NCBI GenBank assembly: GCA_013112575.1
Contig: JABFGG010000005.1
Coordinates: 149,497 to 213,496 of the forward strand
DNA length: 64,000 nt
DNA from: Chloroflexota bacterium
GTDB taxonomy: Bacteria > Chloroflexota > Anaerolineae > Anaerolineales > UBA11579
Direction of reading: 5' to 3'
The notes under the pieces were generated by a model. That model was not told the origin of the DNA, did not search any database, and saw nothing but the letters and a program-made list of their open reading frames with translations. Position 1 is the first letter of the stretch. Every line of letters begins with the position of its first letter. Position numbers and translations under genes: made by a program. Shown one piece after another: positions 2,857 through 56,785 of this stretch.

Positions 2857-3939
2857 TTACTTTATTGTAATCGGAATCGCCTGGGATTGCTGTTCAATAG
2901 CTGCTGCAGCGGCTTTGAGAGCTACTTGCTGGGATATTTCCTTCAGGGACTTGGCAACAGGAGAATCAGGCTGAGAGATCACAATGGGCCGGCCCTCATC
3001 ACCGCCTTCACGCACGGCAGGATCCATGGGGATCAAGCCAATGAACTCCGTATTGGTCTCCTCAGCCATGCGCTCCCCGCCTCCCGAACCGAATACGTCC
3101 ATCTTTTGGCCGTCAGGGAGTTCAAGGTAGCTCATATTCTCAACAACACCAAGGATGTCTACATTTAATTGGTTGAACATTTCCAGGCCGCGACGCGCAT
3201 CTTCTAATGATACTTGCTGCGGCAAAGTGACGATAACGCCACCAGTCACTGGAGCGGTTTGCGCCAGGCTCAACTGCACATCGCCCGTTCCAGGAGGCAG
3301 GTCGATGATGAGGTAATCTAAATCCCCCCAAACCACATCCTCAAGGAATTGTCGAATGGCGGTATGTAGCATGGGCCCACGCCAGATCATCGGTTGTTCA
3401 GGCTTTACCAAAAAGCCAATTGAGATCAATTTGACCCCGTAAGCTTCAGCGGGAGTGAGTTGGCCTTCAGGCCCTGGAGGCTGGGGCAGCCGCTCCACCC
3501 CCATCATGATGGGAATATTGGGGCCATATACGTCAGCATCCAGCAAGCCAACCTTTGCGCCAGCCTGCGCCAGGGAGACGGCCAGGTTAACTGCCACTGT
3601 ACTCTTGCCAACACCGCCTTTGCCCGAGGCTACAGCAATAGAATTGCGCACCTGGGCCGAGCCACCTCCGCGAGTTTTTCCATCGGAGGGAACTTCAACG
3701 ATGACTGCCAATTCAACATCTTTTACGCCTTCCAGGGCAGTGACCGCATCGCGGACAGCTTTTTCGAGTTCGTATTTGTGGGGATGGTCAGGGGTAACCA
3801 GAACGAGAGTCAGTGAAACTTTATCGCCATCAACCTTGATATCGCGTACCAGGTTGGCCGCCACAAGGTCTTTCTTCAGTGCAGGTTCTTGAATAGCGCT
3901 CAAAGCATCAAGGACAAGTTCCTGAGTAACATCAGTCAT
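2857..3939 (-). CDS. apbC: Mrp/NBP35/ApbC-type Fe-S cluster carrier ATPase with N-terminal DUF59/MIP18 domain
   Basis: 360 aa. Deviant Walker A SGKGGVGKST, a conserved Mrp core, and an N-terminal DUF59-like ~90 aa. Confidence 0.9.
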   Translation of the reverse strand: MTDVTQELVLDALSAIQEPALKKDLVAANLVRDIKVDGDKVSLTLVLVTPDHPHKYELEKAVRDAVTALEGVKDVELAVIVEVPSDGKTRGGGSAQVRNSIAVASGKGGVGKSTVAVNLAVSLAQAGAKVGLLDADVYGPNIPIMMGVERLPQPPGPEGQLTPAEAYGVKLISIGFLVKPEQPMIWRGPMLHTAIRQFLEDVVWGDLDYLIIDLPPGTGDVQLSLAQTAPVTGGVIVTLPQQVSLEDARRGLEMFNQLNVDILGVVENMSYLELPDGQKMDVFGSGGGERMAEETNTEFIGLIPMDPAVREGGDEGRPIVISQPDSPVAKSLKEISQQVALKAAAAAIEQQSQAIPITIK

Positions 3940-3950
3940 AATTCGTCGCC

Positions 3951-4310
3951 TTACTTCGCTTTATTTTTCTTCTTTTCTAATTTCTTCAGATGTGTGTCCA
4001 CGTCGCCGTGGGCTTTTTTGTACATCTGATTCAATTCTTTTTCCGGACCGCGGAAACGGCGCACGTTCTGGCTAGAGCAAGCCGTGCAACCACGCATGGC
4101 ACGGAATGAGTCGGCATGGCAGGTAGTGCAACCGTTCAAACGGATCATCATAAGGACAAAGGCCATCTGGTCAGGGTCGTCAATCTCTTTATCGGCAGCC
4201 TTATCAACCAGGTTCGACCAGGACTTGCCCCGCTCATCGCGCAAAGTGGGGATGACTCGGGCTGGAAAGAGCAATTCAGTATCAGGATTGTACATAACGT
4301 AGGCCTTCAA
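3951..4310 (-). CDS. hypothetical Cys4 protein (CX2C-X10-CX2C) with Lys-rich tail
   Basis: 119-aa ORF, 11 nt upstream of mrp. Motif NGCTTCHADSFRAMRGCTACS. No signal peptide. Confidence 0.5.
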   Translation of the reverse strand: MKAYVMYNPDTELLFPARVIPTLRDERGKSWSNLVDKAADKEIDDPDQMAFVLMMIRLNGCTTCHADSFRAMRGCTACSSQNVRRFRGPEKELNQMYKKAHGDVDTHLKKLEKKKNKAK

Positions 4311-4319
4311 TCATACCAA

Positions 4320-4364
4320 TATTATTAAAAGAAATATCCGGCTGGTAGAAATCCAGCCGGATAT
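4320..4364 (-). terminator. intrinsic terminator after nuoI
   Basis: Perfect 12-bp stem ATATCCGGCTGG (4334-4345) / CCAGCCGGATAT (4353-4364) with a 7-nt loop. On the minus strand it is followed by TTCTTTTAATAAT. Confidence 0.6.
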
Positions 4365-4367
4365 CGA

Positions 4368-4994
4368 CTATTCTTTGGCTGCTGCCCGGGCTGCCGCTTT
4401 GGCAGCCTTTTCTTCTTCTTTGGCGATGCGGATATCTTCTTCTCGCCGGTAATTGGTGGGGCGAATCTGGGCGTAATAATCTACAGACATGGAGAGTTTC
4501 TCTTTGTTGTAGATGTGCGCAGAATGGCGGTCATAGGAAGCCAGTTCGTACTGGTGATCCATCTTGATAGCATCGAAGGGGCAGTATTCTGCACAGTAAC
4601 CACAGTTCATGCAGATGTCGATGTCAATATAGAATTCGACCGGCTCAGGCACAGGACGACCGGTATCGGGGTCTTCCGTACGCACGATCCAGATACATTG
4701 CGGCGGGCAAACCTTGGCGCAAATACCACAGGAGGTACAGCGATCCTGTTGTTCACCATCAGGGCCTTCTTCATATAAGAGGAAGGGGATAAAGCGGAAC
4801 TCTTCGGGTACGGGGAGCTTCTCTTCAGGATACTGGACAGTGAAGATGCCCGAGGCGTTTTTGCTGGAACGGTGTGCAACGCCTTCAGGGGTGTAATAGC
4901 GTTTGCCGATCCACTTGAAGTCCTCCACAAAAGTGCCGATGAAGTGACCCATTGTGACCATAAGGCCGCGTAATATACCAAATCCAAAATTCAT
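4368..4994 (-). CDS. nuoI: NADH-quinone oxidoreductase subunit I (2x[4Fe-4S] ferredoxin-type)
   Basis: CTSCGICAKVCP and CMNCGYCAEYCP motifs. NuoI-like N-terminus. Lys/Ala/Glu-rich C-terminal tail. Confidence 0.9.
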   Translation of the reverse strand: MNFGFGILRGLMVTMGHFIGTFVEDFKWIGKRYYTPEGVAHRSSKNASGIFTVQYPEEKLPVPEEFRFIPFLLYEEGPDGEQQDRCTSCGICAKVCPPQCIWIVRTEDPDTGRPVPEPVEFYIDIDICMNCGYCAEYCPFDAIKMDHQYELASYDRHSAHIYNKEKLSMSVDYYAQIRPTNYRREEDIRIAKEEEKAAKAAARAAAKE

Positions 4995-5012
4995 AATATA
5001 GCTCCGTCTTGC

Positions 5013-6779
5013 CTAGCGATCCACTTCGCCGAGGATGATATCAACAGAACCCAACACAACCACAACATCAGCGACTTTAGAGCCAATGCACATCTTTTCC
5101 AGGGCAGTCAGGTTGATAAAGGATGGGGCGCGTACGTGATAACGCCAGGGGTTGGCCTTACCGTTGGACACAACATAAAAGCCAATCTCGCCCTTGGGGC
5201 CTTCTACACGACCAAAAGCTTCACCAGCCGGTACACGCACCTGGTAGGGGTTCTTACCGGTGAGGAAATCGCCATCGGGGATACGCTCCACAGCCTGCTG
5301 CACAATGCGAATGCTCTGACGGATCTCGTCCAGTCGAATCAGGTAACGGTCATAGACATCACCGTGGTAACGAACAGCTACGTCGAAATCGAATTGCTCG
5401 TAGATGCTGTAAGGATCAGCCCGGCGCACATCGTAGGGCACACCGGAAGCACGCAGCATGGGGCCAGCCATAGAGTACTCAATGGCCTCATCGGGGGACA
5501 AAACGCCGATGCCTTCGCAGCGAGTACGCACGATTTCATTGTTGGTCAGGTAACGATCAAGCTCATCTACCTTGCGAGGCAGACGCTCGGTGACCAGTTC
5601 GCCAATGCGCTCAAGGACACCCTCGGGGAAATCACGCGCCACACCGCCAAAGCGGAAGTAGTTATTCATCATGCGCGAGCCCGTGGTGGCTTCAAAGATA
5701 TCCAGCAACAACTCGCGTTCTTCAATAGCATACAGTGAGGGGGTGAAGAAAGCGCCCAGGTCATTGAGCAAGAAGCCAATCGCCCAGAGATGGGAACTGA
5801 TACGGGTCAGTTCTGCCATAATGACGCGGATGTATTCTGCACGTTCGGTGGGTACGCCTTTGGCACCCATCAGTTTTTCTACAGCCAGAGCATAACCGAA
5901 GTTATTGGAGAGGGATGTAATGTAATCAAGCCGGTCGGTGAAGGGCATGTTGTGCAGGAAAGTGTTGCGTTCGCCAATCTTCTCATGATTGCGGTGCAGG
6001 TAGCCCATCACCGGTTTGAGTGCCACTATCGTCTCACCATCCATCAACACGGCCATGCGGAACACACCGTGGGTGGAGGGGTGCTGCGGGCCTAAGTTGA
6101 CGATGACCTGCTCTGTATCCAGATCTTCGATCTCATCATATTCCGCATTGCTGCGACGCAGTGAGTCGTAGAGAGCGTCCTCAATGGCCGGGCTCCAGGA
6201 CTCGGGGTCAAAGCCTTGCGGGTACTGGTTGTTCTTACCGACCGGGTTATGGTCTTCGATGCGATAGACCTGCCCGCCGGGCCAGCGGTTGGCAAAGGGC
6301 TTAACATCTTCTTCAAAGTAAGGCTCTTTCCAATCTTTGCGCATGGGGAAGCCTTCAAAGCCCTCCCACATAAGGATGCGGCGCATGTCGGGGTGATCTG
6401 TAAAATCAATGCCATACAGGTCAAAGGCTTCGCGCTCCTGGAATTCAGCGCCAGGGTACAGTGGAGTCAGTGAGGGAACTGCTGGGTTGTCGCGCGGCGT
6501 TTGCACGGCCAACACGAGGGCCGAACCACCAGTGGATTTATAGAGGTGATAGACCACCTCAAAATAGCTTTCTTCATCCTCTTTCTGCGCCAGGTAATCA
6601 ACCGCGGTAACCGAGGAGAGGAAGTCGTAGCCCAAATCATCGCGTAGTACCTGCGCAACTTCAGTGAGCTTATCGAGTTGGACGATGTAGCCTTCATAAC
6701 CTTTGCGCTCGTCGTGAGTGACAACGCCGGGGAAACGAGCTTCGAGAGTACCTTCTTGTGCGGGGGCCATTTCTGTCAT
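5013..6779 (-). CDS. nuoCD: fused NADH-quinone oxidoreductase subunit C/D
   Basis: 588 aa. The NuoC half carries YPGAEFQEREAFDLYGI. The NuoD half carries NLGPQHPSTHGVFR and a C-terminus DIILGEVDR. No hydrogenase CxxC nickel ligands. Confidence 0.9.
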   Translation of the reverse strand: MTEMAPAQEGTLEARFPGVVTHDERKGYEGYIVQLDKLTEVAQVLRDDLGYDFLSSVTAVDYLAQKEDEESYFEVVYHLYKSTGGSALVLAVQTPRDNPAVPSLTPLYPGAEFQEREAFDLYGIDFTDHPDMRRILMWEGFEGFPMRKDWKEPYFEEDVKPFANRWPGGQVYRIEDHNPVGKNNQYPQGFDPESWSPAIEDALYDSLRRSNAEYDEIEDLDTEQVIVNLGPQHPSTHGVFRMAVLMDGETIVALKPVMGYLHRNHEKIGERNTFLHNMPFTDRLDYITSLSNNFGYALAVEKLMGAKGVPTERAEYIRVIMAELTRISSHLWAIGFLLNDLGAFFTPSLYAIEERELLLDIFEATTGSRMMNNYFRFGGVARDFPEGVLERIGELVTERLPRKVDELDRYLTNNEIVRTRCEGIGVLSPDEAIEYSMAGPMLRASGVPYDVRRADPYSIYEQFDFDVAVRYHGDVYDRYLIRLDEIRQSIRIVQQAVERIPDGDFLTGKNPYQVRVPAGEAFGRVEGPKGEIGFYVVSNGKANPWRYHVRAPSFINLTALEKMCIGSKVADVVVVLGSVDIILGEVDR

Positions 6780-6790
6780 GATGTTTTCCT

Positions 6791-7441
6791 TTACTCCACC
6801 GCGGGGATGACTGTGGTGAGCGGCCCGGATTTGACGCCATCTTTGATGGTTTCATAGTCACGGGGGTCGATAATGTCAGGGCCGAGGATGGGCACGGGGA
6901 TCGGCTCAATGGGCTTGGTGCGGTCACGGAAATTGGTGAAGTGTTTCTCCGTGTCGATCTTTTCCTGGATCTTCATCAAACCGTGCAGCAAAGCCTGCGG
7001 GGTGGGTGGGCAGCCAGGCACGTAAACATCCACCGGGATGTATTTATCCACACCCGAGACAACGTTGTAGCCTTCTTTGAAAGGCCCACCGCCCGATGCG
7101 CAAGCGCCCATCGCCATAACGTACTTGGGGTCAGGCATCTGGTTGTACAGGCGCACGATCTGCGGCAACATCTTCTTGGTGACAGTACCAGAGACGATCA
7201 TCAGGTCCGATTGGCGCGGGCTAGGGCGCAGGACCTCCATGCCGAAGCGAGCCAGGTCATAACGTCCGGCAGCGGCAGAGATCATCTCAATGGCGCAGCA
7301 GGCCAGGCCAAACATCATGGGCCAGACGGAGTAGCGCCGGCCAGCATTGAAGATCTTATCAATGGTGGTGATGGCGACGTTGGCACGCGCTTCCGGGGAA
7401 ATGTCGTAGCCTTCAGTGTTCAAATTGGGGGTTTCAGTCAT
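6791..7441 (-). CDS. nuoB: NADH-quinone oxidoreductase subunit B (N2 cluster subunit)
   Basis: [16 protein letters not shown] and VPGCPP motifs. Start placed at ATG 7441 (MTETPNL), which forms an ATGA overlap with the stop of the upstream ORF. Confidence 0.9.
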
Positions 7442-7659
7442 AATGGGTTTCGCTCCTCGTACCATTCCTGGTAAATGGCCATCAGGATCTCGTCTGTGGC
7501 CAAAGCGGGGTCATCTTGGAAATTGGGGAGTTGAATAATCCAATCGAATAAATTAGTAAGCGATAGTTCTTCCAGATCAACATCGGGATGCTGGGCTTGT
7601 AAGGCCAACACGATCTCGTATCCGGCATCCCAAAAGAGTGGTTGAGTATTTTCGTTCAA
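7438..7659 (-). CDS. iscX: IscX/YfhJ-like small acidic Fe-S assembly accessory protein
   Basis: 73 aa. [21 protein letters not shown]...[32 protein letters not shown] aligns along its length with E. coli IscX as I remember it ([21 protein letters not shown]...[32 protein letters not shown]). TTG start. Confidence 0.6.
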
Positions 7660-7668
7660 TTTGCCACT

Positions 7669-7697
7669 ATTATAGATGGTGGCTTGAAGAGTGTCAA
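7669..7697 (-). promoter_or_regulatory. consensus sigma70-type promoter for the iscX-like/nuoB-CD-I operon
   Basis: Minus strand reads TTGACA (7697-7692), a 17-nt spacer, then TATAAT (7674-7669). Only 9 nt separate the -10 box from the TTG start at 7659. Confidence 0.6.
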
Positions 7698-7717: not shown

Positions 7718-7758
7718 AAAGAAAATATAGATTTGTTTTATTTTAGTCGCTGGTCTGA

Positions 7759-7828: not shown

Positions 7829-8437
7829 ATGCAAAGCACTCGCCAGAAAATCCTCACCCACCTTGACAGCCACCACTCCGCTTCGGCAGTGGAGATCAGC
7901 CGCGCTTTAGGTATGACCAGGGCCAATGTGCGACACCATTTGAATGTGCTGCAGGAAACGGGGTTAGTGGAATTAGCAGGTCAATTACCCAATGAGGGAC
8001 GCGGCCGCCCTACCCTGCTTTACATGGCTACACACCAAGCACAAACTAATAATCTCGGGAGACTTGCTTCGGTTTTGATCAAAGAGTTCGTGGTCAAACA
8101 AAAACGGAATGTTGGTAAGCGCCTGCAACGCATGGCGAAGATATTGGGTGATGGTATAGATAAAAGTGGCTCGATCACTCAACGGCTATACGCAAGCACC
8201 CGTCATCTCAACAGCATGCAGTACAACTCCCATTGGGAAGCGCATGCCGATGGGCCGCGCGTGATCTTCGGGCAATGCCCCTATGCTGCTATTATTGAAG
8301 AGCACCCGGAATTATGTTCAATGGATGCTTTGTTTTTAAAGGATATGCTAGGGATGGAGGTGGAACAGCTTGGCAAGATAGAGTACAAGCCGGATGGCAT
8401 GCCGCATTGCATCTTCGCAGTGCAAAACACCCCTTAG
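7829..8437 (+). CDS. winged-helix (ArsR/DeoR-like) transcriptional regulator with C-terminal CX12CX30C motif, SufR-like
   Basis: N-terminal HTH RQKILTHLDSHHSASAVEISRALGMTRANVRHHLNVLQETGLVE. C-terminal FGQC-PYAAIIEEHPEL-C-(30 aa)-C. Confidence 0.7.
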   Translation: MQSTRQKILTHLDSHHSASAVEISRALGMTRANVRHHLNVLQETGLVELAGQLPNEGRGRPTLLYMATHQAQTNNLGRLASVLIKEFVVKQKRNVGKRLQRMAKILGDGIDKSGSITQRLYASTRHLNSMQYNSHWEAHADGPRVIFGQCPYAAIIEEHPELCSMDALFLKDMLGMEVEQLGKIEYKPDGMPHCIFAVQNTP

Positions 8438-8520: not shown

Positions 8521-10575
8521 ATGAAACACAGATTCTTAATTGCCCTTTTCATCGCCCTCCTGTTTGGCAGCGCCCAGGCCAGTTTCGCCGCGCCTGTTTC
8601 ACAGGAAGCCAGCGAGATCATCTCATTAATTAATGAGTATCGTGCCGAAAACGACCTGGCTCCCCTCAACATCAATGCCCAACTAACCAGCGCCGCACAA
8701 ACCCAGGCCAGTTACCAGGCCTCCATTAATACACTGACGCACAATGGCGCAGGTGGCACATCGGCCACGGACAGGGCAGTCGCGGCAGGCTATGGCGCCA
8801 GCGGTACTCCCTTCATTAGCGAGATCATTTATGCCGGGGGCAACGCTACCCCTGAGAGAGCGCTTAGTTGGTGGAAAAGCTCCAACATCCACAACCCCAT
8901 CATGTTGTCGCTGGTGCGTCACGAGATCGGGGCAGCCGTAGCCACTTCAAATGGGCAAACTTATTACACCGTAGTATTCGGCAATATTCCCGGCCAAACG
9001 ACAGCACTACCACTGGATGCAGACCCGGGCAGTTTGCAAACCGCAGTTCCCACCGACGACGCAGTGATCGCAGCCACCCCCGCTCCTGATGGTTCTATCC
9101 TGCATCTGGTGCAAGCTGGTGAGACGCTGGAAGACATTGCGGCTGCTTATGGCATTTCTGTAGCAGAGCTACAGGCACTGAACAACCTGCAAGAGGGGGA
9201 TGACTTGCCGGTGGCTCTGGTCATTCAGGAGCCTTTGCCGCTAGACCAGATCACTCCTCAAGTTGCCACCGCAACCCTTGTACCGCCAAGCGCAACACCC
9301 TCCCCTGTCACAGTCGACATCCCCACAGCAACGCCCGCTGGCGGGGCTGGTGGGGTAGACGAAGGTGGAAGCGGCTCAACCTCAGGGGAAACGGAGGCAT
9401 CACCACCCAATCAAGGGGTAATTTTCACGACCATATCTTTATTGATCGCCCTACTTGTGTCCCTGGTGTTGAATGTATGGTTATTCCGTTCACGGGAGCA
9501 ATTGCTAAATGAGCTAGACCCCGAACGCCAATCTCGCCGTCGCGGTGTCATCACGCGCGACGCCTTTGCCGAGTTGAGTTACGACGAGCAACGTGAGCGC
9601 TTAGAGGACCTTGCCAGGGTCGCCCTCGAAGACTACCCTCTTGAGGTGACAAACATCACCCCACTGCAATACCAGTTAAACGCTTCCTTCCAGGTTGAGG
9701 GCAAACCCACAGATATTGAAGACGGAGAATCACAGCGTTTCTTTTTACGCATCAGTGCACCGGATTACCAGTCTCAGGACAATATCCGCTCTGAGATGGT
9801 CTATCTGAAATACATCCGGGATAACTCCGACCTCAAGGTGCCCAATCCGCTGGCTACCCACATAGGCGAGTTGATGACCACCGCCGAATCCTTACAAGTT
9901 CCCGAGCCACGCAATGTCATTATGCTGCGCTGGCAGGAAGGCGGCGCTTTGCCCGAAGATGAATTAGGGTCCACCGAACTGGAAAAAGTGGGCGCCTTCA
10001 TGGCCAAATTGCACAACCTGGCAGAAGCATTTGAAGAGCCGGATTATTTCGTGCGCAAACGCTGGGATGTGGACGGCTTGATGGGGGAGAACCTGGACGT
10101 GTCCGTTGACCGGGCCCATGCCAACCTCACAGCAGAACAACTCGTAACCATCAACGCCGCTCTCAAACGCGTGGAGCAGGCTGCTCATGTCCTTGGGGAA
10201 AGTCGCGATACCTTTGGACTGATCCACGCCGACCTCCACCAGAAGAATTACATCTTCGAAAATGGTGTGGTGCGGGCCATTGATTTCGACACTCTGGGTT
10301 GGGGTTATTACGTCTATGACATTGCCGTAACCTTCTCACGTTTGCTGCACCGCAAAGACCTGGGCACGCTGCGCGAAGCTTTCTTACGAGGCTACCGCGG
10401 CGAACGCTCCCTGCCGCCCATCCACGAACAACAGATCGTGCCCCTCGTGGCTGCCCGTCTGGTGACAACCACCTTGTGGTTGGCGGGGCATGCAGAAGAT
10501 ACCATCTTCAAAGACGTGGCCCCCAAGCAGATTGACCATCAGGTCCAGCATTTACGGGCCTTCTTGCAGCGCTAG
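8521..10575 (+). CDS. membrane protein: signal peptide, CAP/SCP domain, LysM, TM helix, cytoplasmic APH-fold (protein-kinase-like) phosphotransferase domain; catalytic motifs intact
   Basis: 684 aa. WWKSSNIHNPIM (CAP), ILHLVQAGETLEDIAAAYGISVAELQALNNL (LysM), TM GVIFTTISLLIALLVSLVLNVWLF, then HADLHQKN and IDFD kinase motifs. Confidence 0.8.
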   Translation: MKHRFLIALFIALLFGSAQASFAAPVSQEASEIISLINEYRAENDLAPLNINAQLTSAAQTQASYQASINTLTHNGAGGTSATDRAVAAGYGASGTPFISEIIYAGGNATPERALSWWKSSNIHNPIMLSLVRHEIGAAVATSNGQTYYTVVFGNIPGQTTALPLDADPGSLQTAVPTDDAVIAATPAPDGSILHLVQAGETLEDIAAAYGISVAELQALNNLQEGDDLPVALVIQEPLPLDQITPQVATATLVPPSATPSPVTVDIPTATPAGGAGGVDEGGSGSTSGETEASPPNQGVIFTTISLLIALLVSLVLNVWLFRSREQLLNELDPERQSRRRGVITRDAFAELSYDEQRERLEDLARVALEDYPLEVTNITPLQYQLNASFQVEGKPTDIEDGESQRFFLRISAPDYQSQDNIRSEMVYLKYIRDNSDLKVPNPLATHIGELMTTAESLQVPEPRNVIMLRWQEGGALPEDELGSTELEKVGAFMAKLHNLAEAFEEPDYFVRKRWDVDGLMGENLDVSVDRAHANLTAEQLVTINAALKRVEQAAHVLGESRDTFGLIHADLHQKNYIFENGVVRAIDFDTLGWGYYVYDIAVTFSRLLHRKDLGTLREAFLRGYRGERSLPPIHEQQIVPLVAARLVTTTLWLAGHAEDTIFKDVAPKQIDHQVQHLRAFLQR

Positions 10576-10732: not shown

Positions 10733-12892
10733 ATGCGTAAACTACTCATCAGCCTGGTTTTTGCTGCCTTTGTGCTGCCTATCTGGCAGGTCTCTGCTTC
10801 ACCCTCTCCCGAGCCTGGCAGCGCCCCCCTGTTAACTCCCAGCCAGATCATTAGTGGCATTAACAGCTACCGCGCCGCCAATGGCCTGCCATCCTACCAG
10901 AGCAACAGCACTCTGATGCAATTGGCGCAGGGCCAGGCGGACTACCAGGCTTCAATTGAAACTGTGACGCACACCGGGCCGGGAGGCACGCGTCCCATCG
11001 ACCGGGCCTATTCCATCGGGTATGGGAATGGCAACACCGTTTTCGTTTCAGAGATCATTTACGGAGGCTATACCGCTACGGTTGATATCGCCATCACCTG
11101 GTGGAAAGGTTCCAGCATCCATAACAGCACTATGCTGGCTTCCACCTACCAGGAGATCGGGGCGGGTGTGGCCTCATCGGGGGATCGCATGTTCTTCACT
11201 GCCGTCACCGGCTATGTAGTGGGCGCTCCAGCACCTGAAAATGCAGGCGTCCCCATCGTTGCAGGCGATGATGAAACCAGTACCGAGAGCGAAGCTCCTT
11301 CCGTACCTTCCATCATCATTATCCCTGTCACAAAATCGGAGCCACGCGAGGATGGCTCCATCATCCATACCGTGCGCACGGGTCAAGCCCTCTGGAATAT
11401 TGCCGCAGTTTATGACGTCCCGCTGGAAGAATTGTTAGAGATCAATAACCTGCCCCAAAACGCCATCATCTTTTCCGGCGATGAAATCATCGTTCAGGAA
11501 GCCACAGAGCCGGTCGTAGAAGTTGAGCCAACTACAGATTCCCAGATTGATACTCCTGAACCAACCGAAGCCGTCGCGCCAACCATAGCTCCAACGGAGG
11601 CCGCGGCCATTGTTGAAGAAGCAACTGCAGACGAAGCCGAAGTTAACACTAGTGCCTCGGCCGTCGCTGCCTTACCCCCGGCAGAACAACCTGGCATCAC
11701 GGGGTTCTTCCAAGGCTCCACAGCCCGTTGGATCATGGTGATTGCTTTTGTAGGACTGTTAGGCGTGTTGGGGACCAGCCTGGTGATGCAACAACGTACA
11801 GTCGAAACCGCGACAGTAACCGGCAACCTCGACCCACTGACCACACCGTTAAACGTTGCGCTCTCTTCAGAGTCACAGGAAGAAAAACAATTCGAAGAAT
11901 TACCCAGGAAAGAACAGTTTGAGCACCTGCAACGTCTAGGGGAAGTGGCTTTGATGACCTACGATCTGAAGATCGAAGATATCAAGCCGCATAATCATTG
12001 GCTCAACGCCAGCTTCAAATTACTCAGTGCCTCCGAAGATGGGGCAGATAACCCAGACTATTTATTGCGGATTCATCATCCCAAACTCCACACAGCTGCC
12101 AGAGTACGTTCCGAGATGCAATGGTTGGCACACTTGAGAGAGCATGCAGACCTCCAAGCTCCTGAACCAATTAAGAACATCGAAGACAAATGGGTGACCA
12201 TGATGGATGCGCCCGGCGTACCCGAGAAGCGGGCTTGCACGATACTCACGTGGCCGTCAGGAAAACAACTCACTGCCAAGCAAGTCACTCAAAAGAAAAT
12301 GGGGCAGGTAGGCGCGTGGCTAGCCCGATTACATGAAGCAGGTCAGGAATTCGACCCACCGAAAGGATTCACGCGTCCCAAGTGGGATTGGGCCGGATTG
12401 CAAGGCAAAGCTTTTAATGTAAAGCGAGATGCAGCACGCGCTGATCTCAGTGATGAACAGCTTGAAATCCTGGATGCTGCAAAAGAGCAAATCAAAGACA
12501 CCATGGGACAACTGGAAAAAAGGAAAAACGCTCTCGGCTTGATCCATGGAAATTTAGGTGTTGACAATCTGGTATTTGACGGCGATGAGGCCAAAGCCAC
12601 AGACTTTGCTGCCAGTGGCTGGGGCTATTATGTTTATGATCTGGCCGTCACTCTACACAGCCTGGCAAATCGTGATAACCTGCCCAAACTCGAAACCGCA
12701 TTGTTGAAAGGCTATCGTAATGTTCGCCCTTTGCCGGACGAAGAAGCTACCAATATAAAAACCTTAATGGCCGGGCGCAGCATGTCACAGGTTTATTTGA
12801 TGACAGCCCTTATCGACCAACCAGCCTTCCATAAACAGGCCGAAGAACGTATCCAGGAACAATTCGACTATTTAGCCACATACCTAATTTAG
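10733..12892 (+). CDS. paralog of the preceding gene with the same architecture; catalytic Asp replaced (predicted pseudokinase)
   Basis: 719 aa. WWKGSSIHNSTM (CAP), IIHTVRTGQALWNIAAVYDVPLEELLEINNL (LysM), TM WIMVIAFVGLLGVLGTSLVM, then HGNLGVDN and TDFA in place of HxD...N and IDFD. Confidence 0.8.
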   Translation: MRKLLISLVFAAFVLPIWQVSASPSPEPGSAPLLTPSQIISGINSYRAANGLPSYQSNSTLMQLAQGQADYQASIETVTHTGPGGTRPIDRAYSIGYGNGNTVFVSEIIYGGYTATVDIAITWWKGSSIHNSTMLASTYQEIGAGVASSGDRMFFTAVTGYVVGAPAPENAGVPIVAGDDETSTESEAPSVPSIIIIPVTKSEPREDGSIIHTVRTGQALWNIAAVYDVPLEELLEINNLPQNAIIFSGDEIIVQEATEPVVEVEPTTDSQIDTPEPTEAVAPTIAPTEAAAIVEEATADEAEVNTSASAVAALPPAEQPGITGFFQGSTARWIMVIAFVGLLGVLGTSLVMQQRTVETATVTGNLDPLTTPLNVALSSESQEEKQFEELPRKEQFEHLQRLGEVALMTYDLKIEDIKPHNHWLNASFKLLSASEDGADNPDYLLRIHHPKLHTAARVRSEMQWLAHLREHADLQAPEPIKNIEDKWVTMMDAPGVPEKRACTILTWPSGKQLTAKQVTQKKMGQVGAWLARLHEAGQEFDPPKGFTRPKWDWAGLQGKAFNVKRDAARADLSDEQLEILDAAKEQIKDTMGQLEKRKNALGLIHGNLGVDNLVFDGDEAKATDFAASGWGYYVYDLAVTLHSLANRDNLPKLETALLKGYRNVRPLPDEEATNIKTLMAGRSMSQVYLMTALIDQPAFHKQAEERIQEQFDYLATYLI

Positions 12893-40376: not shown

Positions 40377-42464
40377 ATGACAACTGCCACGCAAGAAACC
40401 TCGGCCATCGGCCTGCGCAAATTGTTCAGCTCACAAGACGCTGTCATGGCGCTTGCCGTGGTCGTCATCCTGGGCATGATGCTGGTGCCTTTGCCGCCCT
40501 TCGGCATCGATCTGCTGGTCGCATTTAATCTGGCCATCGCCCTGGCTGTCATGCTCATCACCATGTATGTACGCCGGGCCATGGATTTCGCCGCCTTCCC
40601 TACCGTATTGCTGCTCATCACGCTTTTCCGCCTTGGCATCAACGTCGCTTCTAGCCGCCTGATCCTCTTGAACGGTAATGCCGGTAAGGTCATCGACACC
40701 TTTGGTAATTTAATCGTCGGCGGCAATTACATCGTTGGTGTGGTCGTCTTCCTCATTTTGATGGTCATCCAATGGGTGGTGATCAACTCCGGTGCAGGCC
40801 GTGTGGCCGAAGTCGGCGCTCGCTTTACTTTGGACGCCATGCCCGGCAAGCAGTTAGCTATCGATGCCGACCTCAATGCCGGCATCATCGACGAGCAGGA
40901 AGCCAAATTACGTCGCCGGGAAATCCAGATCGAAGCAGATTTTTACGGGGCCATGGATGGCGCCAGCAAATTCGTCAAAGGTGATGCCATCGCTGCCCTC
41001 ATCATTATCCTGGTGAACGTTATCGGTGGCTTTGGCATCGGTGTCATCCAGCGTAACCTCGATTTCCTGGGCGCACTGCAAAGCTACACATTGCTGACCG
41101 TTGGCGCAGGACTGGCCATTCAAATTCCTGCACTACTCGTGTCCGCCTCTGCGGGTCTGATCGTAACCCGTTCATCTTCGGATGCCTCATTGGGCAACGA
41201 CCTCTCCAAACAATTAGCCAATGTCAATGTATTGGTGGGAGGCGCCATCATCATCAGCCTGGTAGCTCTCATCCCTGGCATTCCCAAGTTGCCCTTCCTG
41301 CTGGTTGGTGGGCTATTTGGTGGCGCGGGCTATTTTGTCTGGCAAGGTGAGCAACAACCCGTTGAAACGGTCACAGAAGATTTCCTCCCCATCAGCAAAG
41401 AACCGGAAACACCGGAAGACATGCTACCCATGGTTGTCGTTGACCCGTTGGAATTGGAAGTAGGCTATGGTTTGATTCCGTTGATCGAGGACGGCACGGA
41501 AGAGAACCTCTTACAGCGCATCTCCGGCATCCGGCGACAGATCATGCGGGAGATGGGCTTGATCCTGCCCATCGTGCGCGTACGCGACAACCTGCAATTG
41601 CAGCCCCAAACCTATCGCATCAAAGTGCGCGGCGAAGAAGTCGCTCGCAGCACCATTAAGCTCGGCCATTACCTGGCCATCCCCGGTTCGGGCATTGAAG
41701 AGACCCTGCAAGGCGAGAAAACCACCGAACCCGCCTTTGGTTTGCCTGCAATCTGGATCCGCGATGCTGACAAAGGCCGCGCCGAAATGATGGGCTATAC
41801 CGTGGTCAGCCCCATTGCCGCTATCAGCACGCACCTCTCCGAAGTCGTGCGCGGCTACGGTGGCGACATATTATCCCGCCAAATGCTGTCAGAAATGATC
41901 GAGCAGCTCAAGCTCAGTACCCCCGCGGCCATTGATGGCCTGATACCCGATGTACTCACCCTCGGCGAAGTCCAGGCCGTCCTGCGCAACCTCCTGCGCG
42001 AACGGGTGCCCATCCGCGATCTGGGCGGCATCCTGGAGATCTTGGCCAATACCGCCAGCGTGACCCGTGACCCCAACATATTGGCCGAGGCCGTGCGTCA
42101 GAATATGGCCCGCACCTTATCCAACCAGTACAGCGACCCGGATGGAGACCTGCACGTTTTTACACTGGCTCCCCAATTGGAGGATGTCCTCAAAAGCGCC
42201 CTGGCATCCAATGAGAATGGTGAGATCGCTTTCTCGGTAGATGCACAGACCGCCCAGGGTATTCTTACCCGCCTTGGCCTGCAAATGGAAGAAATGGCCA
42301 AACAGGGTTTCCCGCCTGTGATCCTGGTGCCCCGTGAACTGCGTCTGGCCCTGCGTCGTCTGGTCGAAAAATCATTGCCCAGCCTGGTTGTGTTGGCCTT
42401 TTCGGAGATCAGCAGCCAGACCAAGGTGATCGCACATGGGGCTGTCGAGCCGCTTGGAGTGTAA
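40377..42464 (+). CDS. flhA: flagellar export gate protein FlhA
   Basis: 695 aa. FHIPEP-family motifs (RFTLDAMPGKQLAIDADLNAG, GAMDGASKFVKGDAIA). Confidence 0.95.
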   Translation: MTTATQETSAIGLRKLFSSQDAVMALAVVVILGMMLVPLPPFGIDLLVAFNLAIALAVMLITMYVRRAMDFAAFPTVLLLITLFRLGINVASSRLILLNGNAGKVIDTFGNLIVGGNYIVGVVVFLILMVIQWVVINSGAGRVAEVGARFTLDAMPGKQLAIDADLNAGIIDEQEAKLRRREIQIEADFYGAMDGASKFVKGDAIAALIIILVNVIGGFGIGVIQRNLDFLGALQSYTLLTVGAGLAIQIPALLVSASAGLIVTRSSSDASLGNDLSKQLANVNVLVGGAIIISLVALIPGIPKLPFLLVGGLFGGAGYFVWQGEQQPVETVTEDFLPISKEPETPEDMLPMVVVDPLELEVGYGLIPLIEDGTEENLLQRISGIRRQIMREMGLILPIVRVRDNLQLQPQTYRIKVRGEEVARSTIKLGHYLAIPGSGIEETLQGEKTTEPAFGLPAIWIRDADKGRAEMMGYTVVSPIAAISTHLSEVVRGYGGDILSRQMLSEMIEQLKLSTPAAIDGLIPDVLTLGEVQAVLRNLLRERVPIRDLGGILEILANTASVTRDPNILAEAVRQNMARTLSNQYSDPDGDLHVFTLAPQLEDVLKSALASNENGEIAFSVDAQTAQGILTRLGLQMEEMAKQGFPPVILVPRELRLALRRLVEKSLPSLVVLAFSEISSQTKVIAHGAVEPLGV

Positions 42465-43996: not shown

Positions 43997-44803
43997 ATGG
44001 AAAACGCGACGAAGCAAGCCGAACAAGAACTGATCAACCAATACGTCCGGACGCGCGATATTGCCATGCGCGATCAGATCATCGAGCAGTTCATCCCCCT
44101 CGTGCACTTCACTTTGGGGCGGTTGGGTATCTCTCGCAGCCTGGGTGAGGATTATGAAGATTTTGCCAGCGAGGGCGTCTTGGGTCTGCTAGAAGCTACC
44201 GAACGTTATGAAACAAGTTTCGGAACGCAGTTCAGCACCTATGCCACCATCAAGATCCGCGGCAAGCTGCTGGATTACATGCGAGCCAGGGATTGGTTAT
44301 CACGCTCTGCACGCCAGCGCGTGCGCACCATCCAAAAAATGACCAATGAATTCTGGCGCACACACCAGCGCGCCCCAAGTACCGAAGAGATCGTGCAGCA
44401 CACCGAGCTAAACCTCGAACAAGTGGAACAAGCCATGTTCGACTCAACCCGCATGATCGTTTCTTTGGATGCGGCCAGCGCGGGGAGCGAGGACGAATCC
44501 CTATCATTGCACGATGTCATTGCAGACGAAGATCAATCTATTCCTGATGAACACATGGACGGGCAGGCTTCCAGGCAGATGCTTGTGGAGGCCCTGGATG
44601 ATCTACCCGAACGCGATCAAATGATCTTGTCCATGTATTACTTTGACGAGTTGACCCTCAAAGAGATCGGGGCAGTCCTCGATATCTCTGAATCAAGGGT
44701 CTCGCAGGTCCACGCCAGCATCATGATGAACCTCAAAGCTCAAATGCTGGCTGCAACCGAGTTAGAGCCTCTGGCCCAAGCCAACAGTGGAGATGGCAGA
44801 TGA
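43997..44803 (+). CDS. fliA: flagellar sigma factor FliA (sigma-28/SigD/WhiG family)
   Basis: Regions 2-4 are recognisable (FSTYATIKIRGKLLDYMRARDW; LKEIGAVLDISESRVSQVHA). Confidence 0.9.
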   Translation: MENATKQAEQELINQYVRTRDIAMRDQIIEQFIPLVHFTLGRLGISRSLGEDYEDFASEGVLGLLEATERYETSFGTQFSTYATIKIRGKLLDYMRARDWLSRSARQRVRTIQKMTNEFWRTHQRAPSTEEIVQHTELNLEQVEQAMFDSTRMIVSLDAASAGSEDESLSLHDVIADEDQSIPDEHMDGQASRQMLVEALDDLPERDQMILSMYYFDELTLKEIGAVLDISESRVSQVHASIMMNLKAQMLAATELEPLAQANSGDGR

Positions 44804-45186
44804 CCAAGATCACCCCGCATTTACTCAATGATACTTTGAACATCGTGGCCTTGGCGCGCGAAGCCGCCCGGGTCCGCGGCAATCAGGTTCAGGCCGAACG
44901 ATTCGCGCCTGTCGAGGAGGGCCTGCGGCATATTGTCGCTGGCAGCCGCCAAACGGATGCCAATGCGCCGGTTACAGGCGTTCTGGCCCAGAACGATTTC
45001 CAAACCTTGATGAGCCTCACGGTTTCAGAAGATAGTGGTGGTGAGAGTAGCCAGTCGGCGGCAGAACGCAACCAGGTCATTCAGGCTATGGCCGCTGGCG
45101 GCATGAACGATATGCAGATTGCCAAGCAAATGGGCATGACGCGTGACGAAATTCGCATCGTATTGCGAGTAGGGAGCCAATCATGA
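44800..45186 (+). CDS. hypothetical protein with C-terminal GerE/LuxR- or sigma-region-4-like HTH
   Basis: ATGA overlaps at both ends (with fliA and flgF). C-terminus ERNQVIQAMAAGGMNDMQIAKQMGMTRDEIRIVLR. Confidence 0.55.
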   Translation: MTKITPHLLNDTLNIVALAREAARVRGNQVQAERFAPVEEGLRHIVAGSRQTDANAPVTGVLAQNDFQTLMSLTVSEDSGGESSQSAAERNQVIQAMAAGGMNDMQIAKQMGMTRDEIRIVLRVGSQS

Positions 45187-45932
45187 TCAAGGGATTTTAC
45201 GCAGCCGCATCCGCCATGCTTGCCAATCTCACACGCCAGGAACATCTGTCGCACAACATTGCCAACATCGACACACCTGGCTTCAAACAAGTCATGACCA
45301 GTATGGATGATTTCGTCGAGACCGGCATTTATTATCCGCAACCCGGCAATATCAACCACTCCTATCTGGGCAATTTAGGGCTTGGTGTGGAAAGCTCTCC
45401 AGCCATCACCGATTTTTCAGAGGCTGGCTTGCAACACACCGGCCAACCGCTTGATCTTGCCATCAATGGCAATGGCTTCTTCCAGGTTGAAACTGACAAC
45501 GGCACACGCTACACGCGTGACGGTCGTTTCAGTCGCGACGCTGAAGGGCAATTGGTCACAGTCGATGGATACCTCGTATTGGACAACAACGAAGCTCCCA
45601 TCACCATCGACCCCGGACTGATCGCTGTTGGCCCGGACGGCAGCATTAGCGTCAATGGCGTCCAAGCAGGCCAGATCGGCATCGCAGGCTTTGAAGACCC
45701 CGCGGTCGAGTTAACTGCTGCGGAAGGCAATTTGTTTGAGGCCACTGGCGGCGCGACCAGCATAGAGGTAGGCAGCATGCAACAGGGTTTCCTGGAGGGT
45801 TCCAATGCGGACCCCGCCCGCCTTACCACTCAAATGGTGCAGGTTGCCCGCGCCTACGAAGCTGCTCAACGCCTGGTGCAAAGCCAGGACGAACTATTGG
45901 GACGAGCCATCTCGACCCTGGGACGCTTTTAG
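45183..45932 (+). CDS. flgF: flagellar basal-body rod protein FlgF/FlgG family (proximal rod)
   Basis: MIKGFYAAASAMLA...HNIANIDTPGFK N-terminus and conserved C-terminal rod motif. Confidence 0.85.
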   Translation: MIKGFYAAASAMLANLTRQEHLSHNIANIDTPGFKQVMTSMDDFVETGIYYPQPGNINHSYLGNLGLGVESSPAITDFSEAGLQHTGQPLDLAINGNGFFQVETDNGTRYTRDGRFSRDAEGQLVTVDGYLVLDNNEAPITIDPGLIAVGPDGSISVNGVQAGQIGIAGFEDPAVELTAAEGNLFEATGGATSIEVGSMQQGFLEGSNADPARLTTQMVQVARAYEAAQRLVQSQDELLGRAISTLGRF

Positions 45933-47602: not shown

Positions 47603-49006
47603 ATGCCCTCTTTGCTCAACGGTATCAACACCGCGCTGCAAGCGCTGTTGGCTCACCAACAATCCATCCAGGTCACTGAACACAACGTGGCCAATGCCAA
47701 CACGCCTGGTTACCATCGTCAGGAAGCCATCATGGCCGCGCAGCACCCCATCACGGCTCCCGGATGGAGCAGTGGTGTGGGACCGGGGCAAATGGGTACA
47801 GGCGTAGCTGTAGATCACATCCGGCGTTTCAATGTTGCCTTCCTCGATTCGCGCTTCCGCCGTGAGTCCGGGGAAGCCGCCCGCTGGAACGTTAACCAGC
47901 AGGTACTGCAACATGCTGAAGCTGCCCTGGCAGAGACCAGCACGGACGGCCTGCAATTTAAACTGAACGACTTCTGGGCCAATTGGCAGGCCCTCAGCAC
48001 CGAACCTGCCAACACTGTATTACGCACAGAACTGCACGAGCAGGCCAACACGGTCAGCGACGCCTTTAACCGCCGCGCCATAGAATTAGGACGCTTGCGC
48101 GAAGATCAAGACCTCTCGATCATCGACCGCGTGGGGGAAGTTAATGCGGTTGCAGATCAAGTAGCCGCCCTCAATGCTCAAATCGCTCACGTCAGGTCCG
48201 TTGGACATGCACCCAACGATCTGCTGGATGAGCGCGACCGCCTTCTGGATCGCTTAGGCGAACTCAGTGGGGCTGTGGCGCACGAACAGCAGAACGGCGA
48301 GATCATGGTATCAATCAATGGGCACGCCCTTGTGGTCGGCACCCAGAGTTTTGACCTGGAAACCGCCCCAGATGCCTTCAACGCAAACCTGGTTGCCATC
48401 AACTGGAATGATGGGCAAAGTTTCTCCCCGCCGAGTGGAGAACTCGCCGGACTTCTGGAAGCCCGTGACAGCACCATCGTAGACCAGATCAACGGCCTTG
48501 ACAGTCTGGCCGCAGCTTTGATCAACCGCGTCAACACCTTGCACCAGAGTGGTTATGGCCTCAATAACAACACCGGAATGGATTTCTTTTCAGGCTCAGA
48601 TGCCATGAGCCTGCGCGTGAGCAGCGACGTGGACAACCCGGCCAGCATAGCTACTGCCGCAGCCGCCGACTCGCCCGGTGATAGCAGCATCGCCCAGCAG
48701 ATCGCCGAGGTCCAGCACGAGTTGCTCATGAATGGTGGCACAGCCACCCTCGGCCAGTATTACAACCAGCAGGCTGCCTCCTTGGGCCTCAACGTCCAGC
48801 AGGCGGGCCAGTTAGCCGCCGACCGGCAATTAGTCGCCGATTCTATGCGCTTCCAGCGCGAATCTGTAACTGGCGTTTCTCTGGATGAAGAAGCGGCAAA
48901 ATTAGTGCAATCCCAAAAGGCCTATCAAGCAGCCGTTCGGATGATGACTGCCATTGATGAAATGCTCGATCAGGTCATCAACCGCATGGGCATAGTAGGA
49001 CGGTAG
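47603..49006 (+). CDS. flgK: flagellar hook-associated protein 1 FlgK
   Basis: HNVANANTPGYHRQ N-terminus and C-terminal SLDEEAAKLVQSQKAYQAAVRMM. Confidence 0.9.
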   Translation: MPSLLNGINTALQALLAHQQSIQVTEHNVANANTPGYHRQEAIMAAQHPITAPGWSSGVGPGQMGTGVAVDHIRRFNVAFLDSRFRRESGEAARWNVNQQVLQHAEAALAETSTDGLQFKLNDFWANWQALSTEPANTVLRTELHEQANTVSDAFNRRAIELGRLREDQDLSIIDRVGEVNAVADQVAALNAQIAHVRSVGHAPNDLLDERDRLLDRLGELSGAVAHEQQNGEIMVSINGHALVVGTQSFDLETAPDAFNANLVAINWNDGQSFSPPSGELAGLLEARDSTIVDQINGLDSLAAALINRVNTLHQSGYGLNNNTGMDFFSGSDAMSLRVSSDVDNPASIATAAAADSPGDSSIAQQIAEVQHELLMNGGTATLGQYYNQQAASLGLNVQQAGQLAADRQLVADSMRFQRESVTGVSLDEEAAKLVQSQKAYQAAVRMMTAIDEMLDQVINRMGIVGR

Positions 49007-51906: not shown

Positions 51907-53112
51907 TTACCGGCCGATGTTGACCAGTTCCTGCAGCATTTGATCGGATGCCGTGATCACACGGGACGCTGCCTGGAAACCACGCTGCGCCAGGATCATG
52001 TTGGTGAATTCCTGTGCCAGGTCTACGGTGGAAGCCTCCAGGTTGCCGGAGAGGATCGTGCCGCGTCCGCCTGTGTCTGCCGCCCCCACCTGGGGGTCGC
52101 CGGAGTTCAAACCGACTTCATACAGGTTCTGGCCGATGCGGTTCAGGCCGGAGGGGTTCACAAAGGTCGCGAGGGACACCTGGCCCATCAACTGTTGCAG
52201 GCCATTGGAATACACCGCGTACACCTCGCCAGTGTTGGAGATCACGCTGAAGCCTGTCAGGCTTCCTGCGCCCAAACCATCCTGGGACAATCCGGAGGCA
52301 TCACTGTTGGCTGCCAGTTGGGTTACGTTGGCCATATCCAGGTTGACGCTGAAAGCCGGTGCGCCACCGCTGGCAGGGATTGTGACCGCCCCACCGCCGG
52401 CGCTGAACTGGCCCTGGGCATCGAAGGTCACCGTGCCGGAGCCAGCCGCACCACTTGATGCTGCCCAATCCCACACGTTGGTCACGCCCTGGCGTGTAAA
52501 ATCAACCGCCACGCTGCGCAGTTGCCCCAGCGAGTCATAAGCGCCCACGGTCACGGAAAAGCTGCCCGTACCGCCGGTTGCGCCATCCAGGTTCCCGCCC
52601 ATGAAGACGTTCTGGGTAGCCTGTGCCAGTGTCGAGTCCGTCGGGACCTGGATATCGCCGATAGCAGTACCTGTGTCGACAACGCCAGCCACGGCTGTCC
52701 AGCCTTGCAAACGCAGACCAGTGGATTCATTCACCAGGAAACCCTGCGAGTCCATGTTGGTAGCGCCGTCACGGGAATAGAAAGTGTTGGTGGCATCAGA
52801 GTAGATGAACAGGCCATCACCCTGGATCGCCATATCCGTCAAGCGCCCCGTGGATTGCATCGTGCCCTGGGAGAAGGTGGTGGTCACCCCGCCCAGGCGG
52901 GCACCTAAACCGATCTGCGTGGGGTTGATACCACCCAGTGTGGCTGTGGGGGCCGAGCCTGCCGACATGGTCTGGGCAAACTGATCTTTAAAGGTAATGC
53001 GGCTGGCTTTGTAAGCCGGGGTATTGGCATTCGCCAGGTTGTCTGCTACTACATCCATGTAAGTCTGGTGCAGGTTCAGGGACGTAATTGCGGTGAACAT
53101 TGAACGTAACAT
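51907..53112 (-). CDS. flgE: flagellar hook protein FlgE
   Basis: MLRSMFTAITSLNLHQTYMDVVADNLANANTPAYK N-terminus and C-terminal LEASTVDLAQEFTNMILAQRGFQA. Confidence 0.95.
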   Translation of the reverse strand: MLRSMFTAITSLNLHQTYMDVVADNLANANTPAYKASRITFKDQFAQTMSAGSAPTATLGGINPTQIGLGARLGGVTTTFSQGTMQSTGRLTDMAIQGDGLFIYSDATNTFYSRDGATNMDSQGFLVNESTGLRLQGWTAVAGVVDTGTAIGDIQVPTDSTLAQATQNVFMGGNLDGATGGTGSFSVTVGAYDSLGQLRSVAVDFTRQGVTNVWDWAASSGAAGSGTVTFDAQGQFSAGGGAVTIPASGGAPAFSVNLDMANVTQLAANSDASGLSQDGLGAGSLTGFSVISNTGEVYAVYSNGLQQLMGQVSLATFVNPSGLNRIGQNLYEVGLNSGDPQVGAADTGGRGTILSGNLEASTVDLAQEFTNMILAQRGFQAASRVITASDQMLQELVNIGR

Positions 53113-56321: not shown

Positions 56322-56785
56322 CACGCGTTCCCCAGGTTGGCTTCCAGCGATTGGCGGAAGGCCTTGGCAATATAAAGGTCATCCTGCAATGCTGCCTCCT
56401 GGGCAGCCTGCTTGGCATCGACCTCGTCCTGCTGGTTCTGTTTGAGTTTAAGCAGCACTTCTTCGTCTTGTTTGGCTGCCGTGACTTCATTGCGCTTGGC
56501 CTGTACCTGCATCTTTAGTTCTTCCAGCGCATGCTTTTGCTGTTCGATCTGTTCAAGCACACGTTGCAGGTTGGCACGCGTGTGGTTCAACTTGTCCATA
56601 TTGATCTCACCAGACTGCATCTCCGCCAGTTGTTGGTGTAGGTCAGTTTGTTGCTGCTCCAAAAAGATGAGATACTCTTTGGCTTGCTGCTCCTGTACAA
56701 GTAAGCGGCTGAGTAATATCTCAAGGGCATCCACGATATTGTGGCGATAATCTAAAACAGGTTGTAAAGAGAATTTAATGGCCAT
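56321..56785 (-). CDS. fliJ: flagellar export chaperone FliJ
   Basis: [15 protein letters not shown] followed by a coiled coil. Position after fliI. ATG 56785 lies 11 nt after AAGGAGG. Confidence 0.8.

Follow-up and report, generated by a model that had tools for sequence, protein, structure and literature searches.

The stretch of DNA analysed here, referred to below as the window, comprises 64,000 nucleotides of contig JABFGG010000005.1 (positions 149,497 to 213,496 of the forward strand; assembly GCA_013112575.1) from a Chloroflexota bacterium of the Anaerolineales (UBA11579). Close to its left end lies an operon of four tightly packed minus-strand genes, running from 7659 to 4368, that encode an IscX-family protein, NuoB, a fused NuoCD and NuoI. 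An earlier reading made from the letters alone (the sequence-only reading) had drawn attention to this unit as a complex I Q-module standing by itself and coupled to an IscX-like gene, and its account of the four-gene content is borne out by gene calls and family models. Proteins identical to those of the window carry the NCBI names IscX, NuoB, NuoD, 4Fe-4S dicluster protein, hypothetical, ApbC, stage 0 sporulation family and ArsR family. The operon is one more case of the split complex I of Chloroflexi, an arrangement that is already published; the translationally coupled IscX gene that heads it is real, widespread and optional, and undescribed as far as the literature was searched.

The IscX gene (7438-7659, minus strand) encodes a protein of 73 aa, read from a TTG start and with a computed net charge of -14, and is followed on the same strand by nuoB (6791-7441, 216 aa), the fused nuoCD (5013-6779, 588 aa) and nuoI (4368-4994, 208 aa). 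The stop codon of the first gene and the start codon of the second have the tetranucleotide ATGA in common (7441-7438), as had been noticed before, and a Shine-Dalgarno sequence for nuoB, GAGGAG (7453-7458, minus strand), can be read 11 nt before the nuoB ATG, inside conserved Glu-Glu codons of IscX. NCBI places the start of NuoB at an upstream ATG (7465-7463), which yields a protein of 224 aa; this codon arises from the conserved Glu-Trp codons (GAA TGG) of IscX in the other frame, and many other loci have, as a by-product, an ATG or GTG in frame at this -28 position. Transcription of the four genes would begin at a strong sigma-70-type promoter, TTGACA-N17-TATAAT (7669-7697, minus strand), and would stop at a strong intrinsic terminator after nuoI (4323-4365, minus strand). 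The promoter agrees with the consensus at 12 of 12 positions, as claimed from the letters, and is the sole such match between 1500 and 8600. The terminator begins 3 nt past the nuoI stop codon and has a hairpin (4365-4333) with a 13-bp stem and a 7-nt loop, followed by a T-rich tail; it had been recognized correctly in the sequence-only reading, apart from the stem length, which was given as 12 bp.

IscX is the least understood protein of the iron-sulphur cluster (ISC) assembly system, and its role is still unclear. Family assignment of the 73-aa open reading frame (ORF) is supported by the hidden Markov models PF04384 (54.6 bits; cut-off 25) and TIGR03412 (57.4 bits; cut-off 40.4), the latter being covered from position 2 to position 62 of 63. 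The protein also aligns end to end and without gaps with E. coli IscX, or YfhJ (1UJ8/2BZT; E 5e-8). Its AlphaFold (AF2) model, with a predicted local distance difference test score (pLDDT) of 92.1, has the three-helix IscX fold; the top Foldseek matches of this model are 1UJ8 and 2BZT, at template modelling (TM) scores of 0.81-0.90, and the next match has E > 2. The Pfam check that the sequence-only reading had proposed for this ORF is therefore passed, and the structure comparison agrees with it. Like its E. coli relative, to which it is tied by profile, sequence and predicted fold, the protein is small and very acidic and keeps a conserved W...DDP...W core. The gene context, however, differs. 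In E. coli, iscX is the last gene of iscRSUA-hscBA-fdx-iscX, whereas the Chloroflexi gene lies outside any isc operon and heads a nuo operon, in which its translation is coupled to that of nuoB. The 73-aa protein is a genuine IscX homologue whose gene has moved out of the isc operon. This detachment from the ISC genes is notable because the occurrence of IscX seems to be IscS-dependent (PMC5801593).

The three remaining proteins have features of complex I subunits. NuoB scores 227.5 bits on TIGR01957 (cut-off 142.7) and carries the ligand motifs of cluster N2 (CCxxE, GACA and PGCPP), which align to NDUFS7, so that the four Cys ligands of this cluster are kept; a C-terminal extension of ~50 aa is also present. 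Its best PDB matches are the complex I subunits PSST/Nqo6 (185-198 bits), with MbhJ at 113 bits. NuoCD combines the Complex1_30kDa and Complex1_49kDa domains, scores 448 bits on NF004739 (cut-off 360) and is closest to Nqo4 of T. thermophilus (337 bits), with conservation of the QHPSTHG loop and of the DRxDY (here DRLDY) tyrosine of the quinone site. The large subunits of membrane-bound hydrogenase and formate hydrogenlyase reach only 161-169 bits against it; the protein has no Cys motifs for NiFe ligands, and its C-terminus reads GEVDR, not DPCxxC. NuoI contains two CxxCxxCxxxCP motifs and a Lys/Ala-rich C-terminal tail. Its best NCBIfam matches are the NuoI models, but the score on TIGR01971 (95.2 bits) is below the cut-off of 113.05.

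No other nuo gene was found in the rest of the window, where the analysis covered a count of multi-transmembrane ORFs and a Pfam check of ten ORFs (these are flagellar, sensor-kinase, sigma-factor or CAP/LysM/APH proteins), nor in 10 kb beyond the left edge of the window, which is covered by a longer contig of the same organism. In place of the canonical nuo operon, with nuoA to nuoN contiguous, only B, CD and I occur in the window and on this longer contig. The absence of flanking genes for the membrane arm or the N-module that had been remarked upon at the outset thus holds over this larger region. One genome per GTDB species was scanned with a profile made from an alignment of IscX-like proteins, which returned 365 confirmed matches. 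The best 80 of these were inspected, and all are from Anaerolineae, Anaerolineales or Chloroflexi metagenome-assembled genomes (MAGs), one of them labelled Anaerolinea thermophila. The same isolated block is present at 80 of the 80 loci. A phmmer search of the surroundings, with E. coli subunits as queries, gave no NuoA, H, J-N or E-G at a distance of up to 10 kb from any of these loci. In a reverse survey, in which metagenome contigs were scanned with an alignment of fused NuoCD, any membrane-arm gene was within reach at only 2 of the 80 metagenome loci obtained.

This organization corresponds to one described for cultured Chloroflexi. As summarized in PMC7117926 (McGonigle 2020, citing Chadwick 2018), the complex I of species such as Anaerolinea thermophila includes an additional NuoM (nuoL-M1-M2-N), and nuoBCDI with fused nuoCD is found separately. 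The window operon resembles this '2M' complex I of Chadwick 2018, as that summary presents it, in its fused nuoCD, in having nuoB-CD-I as a block of its own, and in its Anaerolineae lineage; moreover, its NuoD groups with clusters that have nuoI next after nuoD, one of them with L-M-M-N. The summary in PMC7117926 differs from our locus in that it makes no mention of IscX, of a divergent regulator with three cysteines (Cys3 regulator) or of a neighbouring Mrp-like gene. The stand-alone arrangement that the sequence-only reading had singled out is accordingly an ordinary one: a split of this kind, which that reading had itself named as a ground for refutation if common in the lineage, is common there, both in the account of PMC7117926 and at the 80 genome loci.

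In clusters with the order (A)-B-C-D-I-(A)-H, NuoD shares 58-69% identity with the NuoD part of the window protein, and the NuoI proteins of D-I-(A)-H clusters share 40-50% with that of the window. For the same NuoD part, identity to E. coli NuoCD, or to a second, NuoF-linked set at locus L172, is only about 39-40%. Among the related clusters, L150 and L156 (both from metagenomes) read NuoCD-NuoI-NuoA-NuoH, and another reads A-B-C-D-I-H-J-K-L-M-N; in L172 (6646-18532), A-B-C-D-I-H-J-K-L is followed by three antiporter-like subunits (M-M-N), that is, by an arm with two NuoM copies. As judged by these comparisons, the Q-module of the window falls in a complex I clade with nuoI placed after nuoD and no attached nuoEFG, the Q-module genes of which are linked elsewhere to nuoA and nuoH. 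Of the two possibilities offered earlier, a split complex I or a soluble or alternative-partner Q-module, the former is favoured by the published Chloroflexi split, by the 80 uniform loci and by this clade, and the latter is unlikely because its nearest NuoD and NuoI relatives are joined to nuoA and nuoH. Several unusual complex I gene orders from other phyla were seen in passing. Beside its two-NuoM cluster, L172 carries a second, divergent A-B-C-D-F set; L174 (7913-11110, an Omnitrophota MAG) has D-I-A-H followed by Rieske and ferredoxin genes; and L176 (6212-8611) encodes a single 799-aa NuoB-C-D fusion, then nuoI, one gene of no known identity, nuoA and nuoH.

The association of IscX with nuoB is conserved throughout the genomes inspected. 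With denominators restricted to loci whose contig reaches far enough, IscX is followed by NuoB in 78 of 78, by NuoCD in 74 of 74 and by NuoI in 64 of 64 genome loci, which answers the call made in the sequence-only reading for a synteny survey of iscX-nuoB adjacency. The IscX stop codon overlaps the nuoB start codon in 62 of 79 loci, the overlap being of the ATGA type in 50 and of another type in 12. When genes near IscX were sought in 85 loci by phmmer with E. coli Isc proteins, no IscU, HscB, Fdx or IscR was found, and IscS was represented by one weak IscS-like match at a single locus (E 2e-7). The same search recovered an A-type carrier (IscA/SufA-like) near IscX in 11 loci and a DnaK-like protein in one.

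Metagenome operons with room upstream of nuoB (n=56) allowed the presence or absence of IscX to be scored independently of the IscX profile. IscX is present in 25 of them and absent from 31; in many operons without it, the regulator gene lies only ~95-120 nt from nuoB. The distribution on the NuoCD tree is clustered yet patchy, in that 45 of 56 nearest neighbours share the same state, compared with a mean of 27.8 and a maximum of 42 after shuffling. We therefore rejected IscX as an obligatory part of the split operon. IscX is an optional extra that some lineages have inserted between promoter and nuoB, and this optional and patchy occurrence argues against a core structural role and fits a helper in the loading, assembly or regulation of iron-sulphur (Fe-S) clusters. 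In the literature searched, no report was found of IscX together with Chloroflexi, and IscX was mentioned with complex I or nuoB only in other contexts. The link between IscX and a nuo operon, unfamiliar to the sequence-only reading, is hence conserved and, within that literature, unreported.

Divergent from the operon is a gene (7829-8437, plus strand) for a 202-aa ArsR-type winged helix-turn-helix (wHTH) regulator that matches the Pfam families HTH_20 and HTH_5. In 61 orthologues its C-terminal domain has three invariant cysteines (C150-X12-C163 and C194) and a near-invariant H159; no match to this domain was obtained in a PDB sequence search. The gene is divergent and adjacent upstream in 48 of 65 genome loci. 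The protein is reminiscent of SufR, the Fe-S-sensing repressor that is divergent from sufBCDS in cyanobacteria, with which it shares an N-terminal ArsR-type wHTH domain, a similar length, a C-terminal Cys-X12-Cys with a third Cys, and a divergent arrangement beside an Fe-S-related operon. Nevertheless, it fails the SufR model TIGR02702 (29.6 bits against a cut-off of 178.8, from the N-terminal part only), has three cysteines rather than four, and adjoins a nuo rather than a suf operon. The resemblance to SufR is functional only. We regard it as a putative Fe-S-sensing controller of the operon, which would bind the site described below.

The promoter is likewise conserved. Upstream of IscX, 47 related loci share with the window a correspondingly placed match to at least 11 of the 12 consensus positions. 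In a subset of loci that includes the window, the start codon follows the -10 hexamer by 8-10 nt, a spacing that suggests an mRNA with little or no leader. The distance is only 9 nt in the window, where the mRNA would be almost leaderless, and the start itself is uncertain because it would be a TTG codon; public gene calls for this protein give 57, 73 and 96 aa. Upstream of the promoter lies a 16-bp element, GCAAA-N6-TTTKC, found 9-14 bp upstream of the -35 hexamer in ~32 of the 47 related loci with strong promoters, a count from which three poor regex matches were set aside. Some versions, for example TTATGCAAATATATATTTGCATAA, are perfect palindromes. The window version, the putative operator ACAAATCTATATTTTC, is at 7721-7736 (minus strand). 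The regulator represents an unnamed ArsR-type subfamily, with a C-terminal Cys-X12-Cys...Cys, that is paired across the order with this element upstream of the nuoB/IscX promoter. In ~20 loci (L010, L014-L036 and others) a conserved 5'-leader, GTGAAYGAAAGAACAA, which is absent from the window, comes right after the promoter; this leader might act as a second site for a protein, or as an RNA element.

Three further minus-strand genes lie downstream of the terminator. Next to nuoI is a gene for a basic protein of 114 aa (3951-4295), syntenic in its position between nuoI and a gene of the Mrp family, with an invariant CxxC-X10-CxxC arrangement. No match to the protein was found in Pfam, NCBIfam or the PDB; it is present in at least 29 genome loci, and its four cysteines are invariant in 29 orthologues. 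It is followed by a Mrp/NBP35/NUBPL-family P-loop ATPase with an N-terminal DUF59 domain (2857-3939; PF10609 and PF01883), found downstream in 44 of 49 loci and named ApbC by NCBI. On the ApbC model this protein scores 321.5 bits, below the cut-off of 348. It contains no Cys at all: the region of the CxxC motif reads ENMSYLELPDG in ~50 orthologues (loci L004-L087), and the usual Cys of the DUF59 domain is missing (TPDHPH). By its sequence, then, the protein falls outside the ApbC/Mrp/NUBPL Fe-S cluster carriers, since it has no CxxC, and the database name ApbC probably overstates its function. That the 114-aa protein supplies Cys ligands in trans to the Cys-free ATPase is a speculation. The third gene encodes a RicT/PSP1 family protein (1806-2741; NF041131, 189.6 bits) that is downstream in 33 of 48 loci.

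The position of a P-loop family member with a DUF59 domain just downstream of nuoI recalls NUBPL/Ind1, the mitochondrial complex I Fe-S assembly factor, and bacterial ApbC/Mrp. The window protein differs from these in its lack of any Cys and in its score below the ApbC cut-off, and a terminator separates its gene from nuoI. Because the ATPase is Cys-free and below that cut-off, the parallel with Ind1/NUBPL is one of family membership only. A single Fe-S maturation operon that would join IscX, ApbC and RicT was considered and rejected, given the strong terminator after nuoI and the Cys-free state of the ApbC-like protein.

No RNA family was found in the window by Rfam. From 8521 to 10575 and from 10733 to 12892, on the plus strand, there are tandem paralogues of 684 and 719 aa with a signal peptide, CAP/SCP and LysM domains, a membrane span and an APH-type kinase-like domain, an unusual receptor-like architecture. 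Between ~31600 and 64000 this Chloroflexi MAG carries a large flagellar gene set, of which the following were confirmed with Pfam: FlhA (40377-42464), a FliA-like sigma factor (43997-44803), a rod protein (45183-45932), FlgK (47603-49006), the hook protein FlgE (51907-53112), FliI (56775-58118), FliG (58899-59921) and FliF (59927-61570).

Considering the genes, their order and their control region together, we propose that NuoB, the fused NuoCD and NuoI form the Q-module, with clusters N2, N6a and N6b and with the quinone site, of a split complex I that has no N-module next to it, in an Anaerolineae-type Chloroflexi bacterium. The membrane arm (nuoA, H and J-N, probably with two NuoM copies) would be encoded elsewhere in the genome, as published for the lineage. 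The divergent Cys3 regulator probably controls the promoter through the AT-rich palindromic site upstream of the -35 hexamer, and would in this way tie expression of the operon to Fe-S or redox status. Through the start/stop overlap, translation of IscX would immediately precede that of NuoB on their common mRNA, and IscX is most likely an optional, lineage-specific helper that loads or regulates the [4Fe-4S] clusters of NuoB and NuoI, rather than a core subunit. As a joint reading, with a split complex I whose membrane arm lies elsewhere, control by the Cys3 regulator and IscX as an optional Fe-S helper, we consider this explanation probable.

Some observations nonetheless weigh against this proposal. 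We sought the Anaerolineae membrane-arm cluster in protein searches seeded with two NuoH sequences, T. thermophilus Nqo8 rebuilt from a PDB alignment and the NuoH that adjoins a related NuoCD in metagenome locus L150; these searches reached only Thermus/Deinococcus relatives, Omnitrophota and other lineages, and returned no locus assignable to Chloroflexi. The operator-like site in the window is degenerate and lies 23 bp upstream of the -35 hexamer, which is 10 bp, or one helical turn, further than in most loci. In addition, the absence of Cys from the neighbouring 'ApbC' weakens the picture of a full Fe-S delivery set beside the operon, from which the downstream genes are in any case separated in the window by the strong terminator.

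For the role of IscX itself, accessory Fe-S loading or assembly of NuoB and NuoI is the most likely, ahead of an extra subunit and, in third place, a general Fe-S regulator. The suggestion that IscX is a 'dedicated Fe-S maturation factor' can be taken further, to a proposal in which IscX was removed from the ISC machinery and tied to one client, the NuoB/NuoI part of a complex I with no N-module beside it, which it would serve as a dedicated maturation factor or as an extra subunit, co-translated with NuoB and placed under the Cys3 Fe-S-sensing regulator. We put this forward tentatively, as a possible history. Alternatively, the IscX-like protein might be an accessory subunit present in stoichiometric amounts in the peripheral arm, where it could cover or shape the surface to which the N-module attaches in canonical complex I, or help to dock an electron donor. 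Complex I relatives with scattered genes and extra subunits do exist: cyanobacterial and chloroplast NDH-1 is encoded over several loci and likewise has no NuoEFG next to its Q-module, although its genes are grouped differently (ndhC-K-J, ndhA-I-G-E and so on), and it has its own set of small accessory subunits with which the IscX-like protein might be compared. To our knowledge, IscX is not one of these. Coupling to NuoB in 62 of 79 loci would favour matched amounts of the two proteins, IscX adjoins nuoB in 78 of 78 loci among the 80 genomes found through IscX, there is no ISC machinery nearby, and the related contiguous clusters also have no nuoEFG beside the Q-module. A stoichiometric subunit would, on the other hand, hardly be expected to be missing from 55% of related operons and to be patchy on the NuoCD tree, and a net charge of -14 makes IscX a poor partner for acidic ferredoxins. 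We find a subunit role unlikely.

Even less weight is given to the view that the IscX-like protein is a general modulator of cysteine desulfurase and Fe-S assembly, as in E. coli, which merely shares a promoter with a heavy Fe-S consumer under the same regulator and has no specific relation to NuoB. The full IscX fold with its conserved acidic DDP loop, the regulator with SufR-like cysteines divergent to the operon, and the A-type carrier gene close upstream in 11 loci are all compatible with such a modulator. Yet among the 80 inspected genomes IscX always stands directly before nuoB, mostly with overlap, an association tighter than co-regulation requires, and the pairing of regulator and nuoB persists in operons that have no IscX. 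A truly stand-alone Q-module, acting as a soluble quinone or other reductase or docked on a membrane partner other than complex I, seems very improbable. It would account for the lack of any membrane-arm gene within 10 kb of the 80 genome loci and for the presence of such genes at only two of the 80 metagenome loci. However, PMC7117926, citing Chadwick 2018, puts the membrane arm elsewhere in these genomes, the nearest relatives of the window NuoD and NuoI are encoded in clusters that physically adjoin nuoA and nuoH, the residues of the quinone site that act jointly with NuoH are conserved, and relatives of the hydrogenase type match much more weakly. A split complex I with IscX as an optional helper thus continues to be the explanation that we prefer.

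The value of the locus resides in the association of IscX with nuoB; the split operon itself adds nothing new. The Cys-free 'ApbC' next door is a warning against taking a database name as a function. Since related operons occur with and without IscX, they offer a natural comparison in which an action of IscX on cluster insertion into NuoB and NuoI, or on the assembly of complex I, becomes testable. The pairing of the Cys3 regulator with a conserved site suggests that this lineage adjusts production of the Fe-S-rich half of complex I to the supply of Fe-S. If IscX has indeed been tied to a single client here, the operon would be the first natural setting that gives this protein a defined partner.

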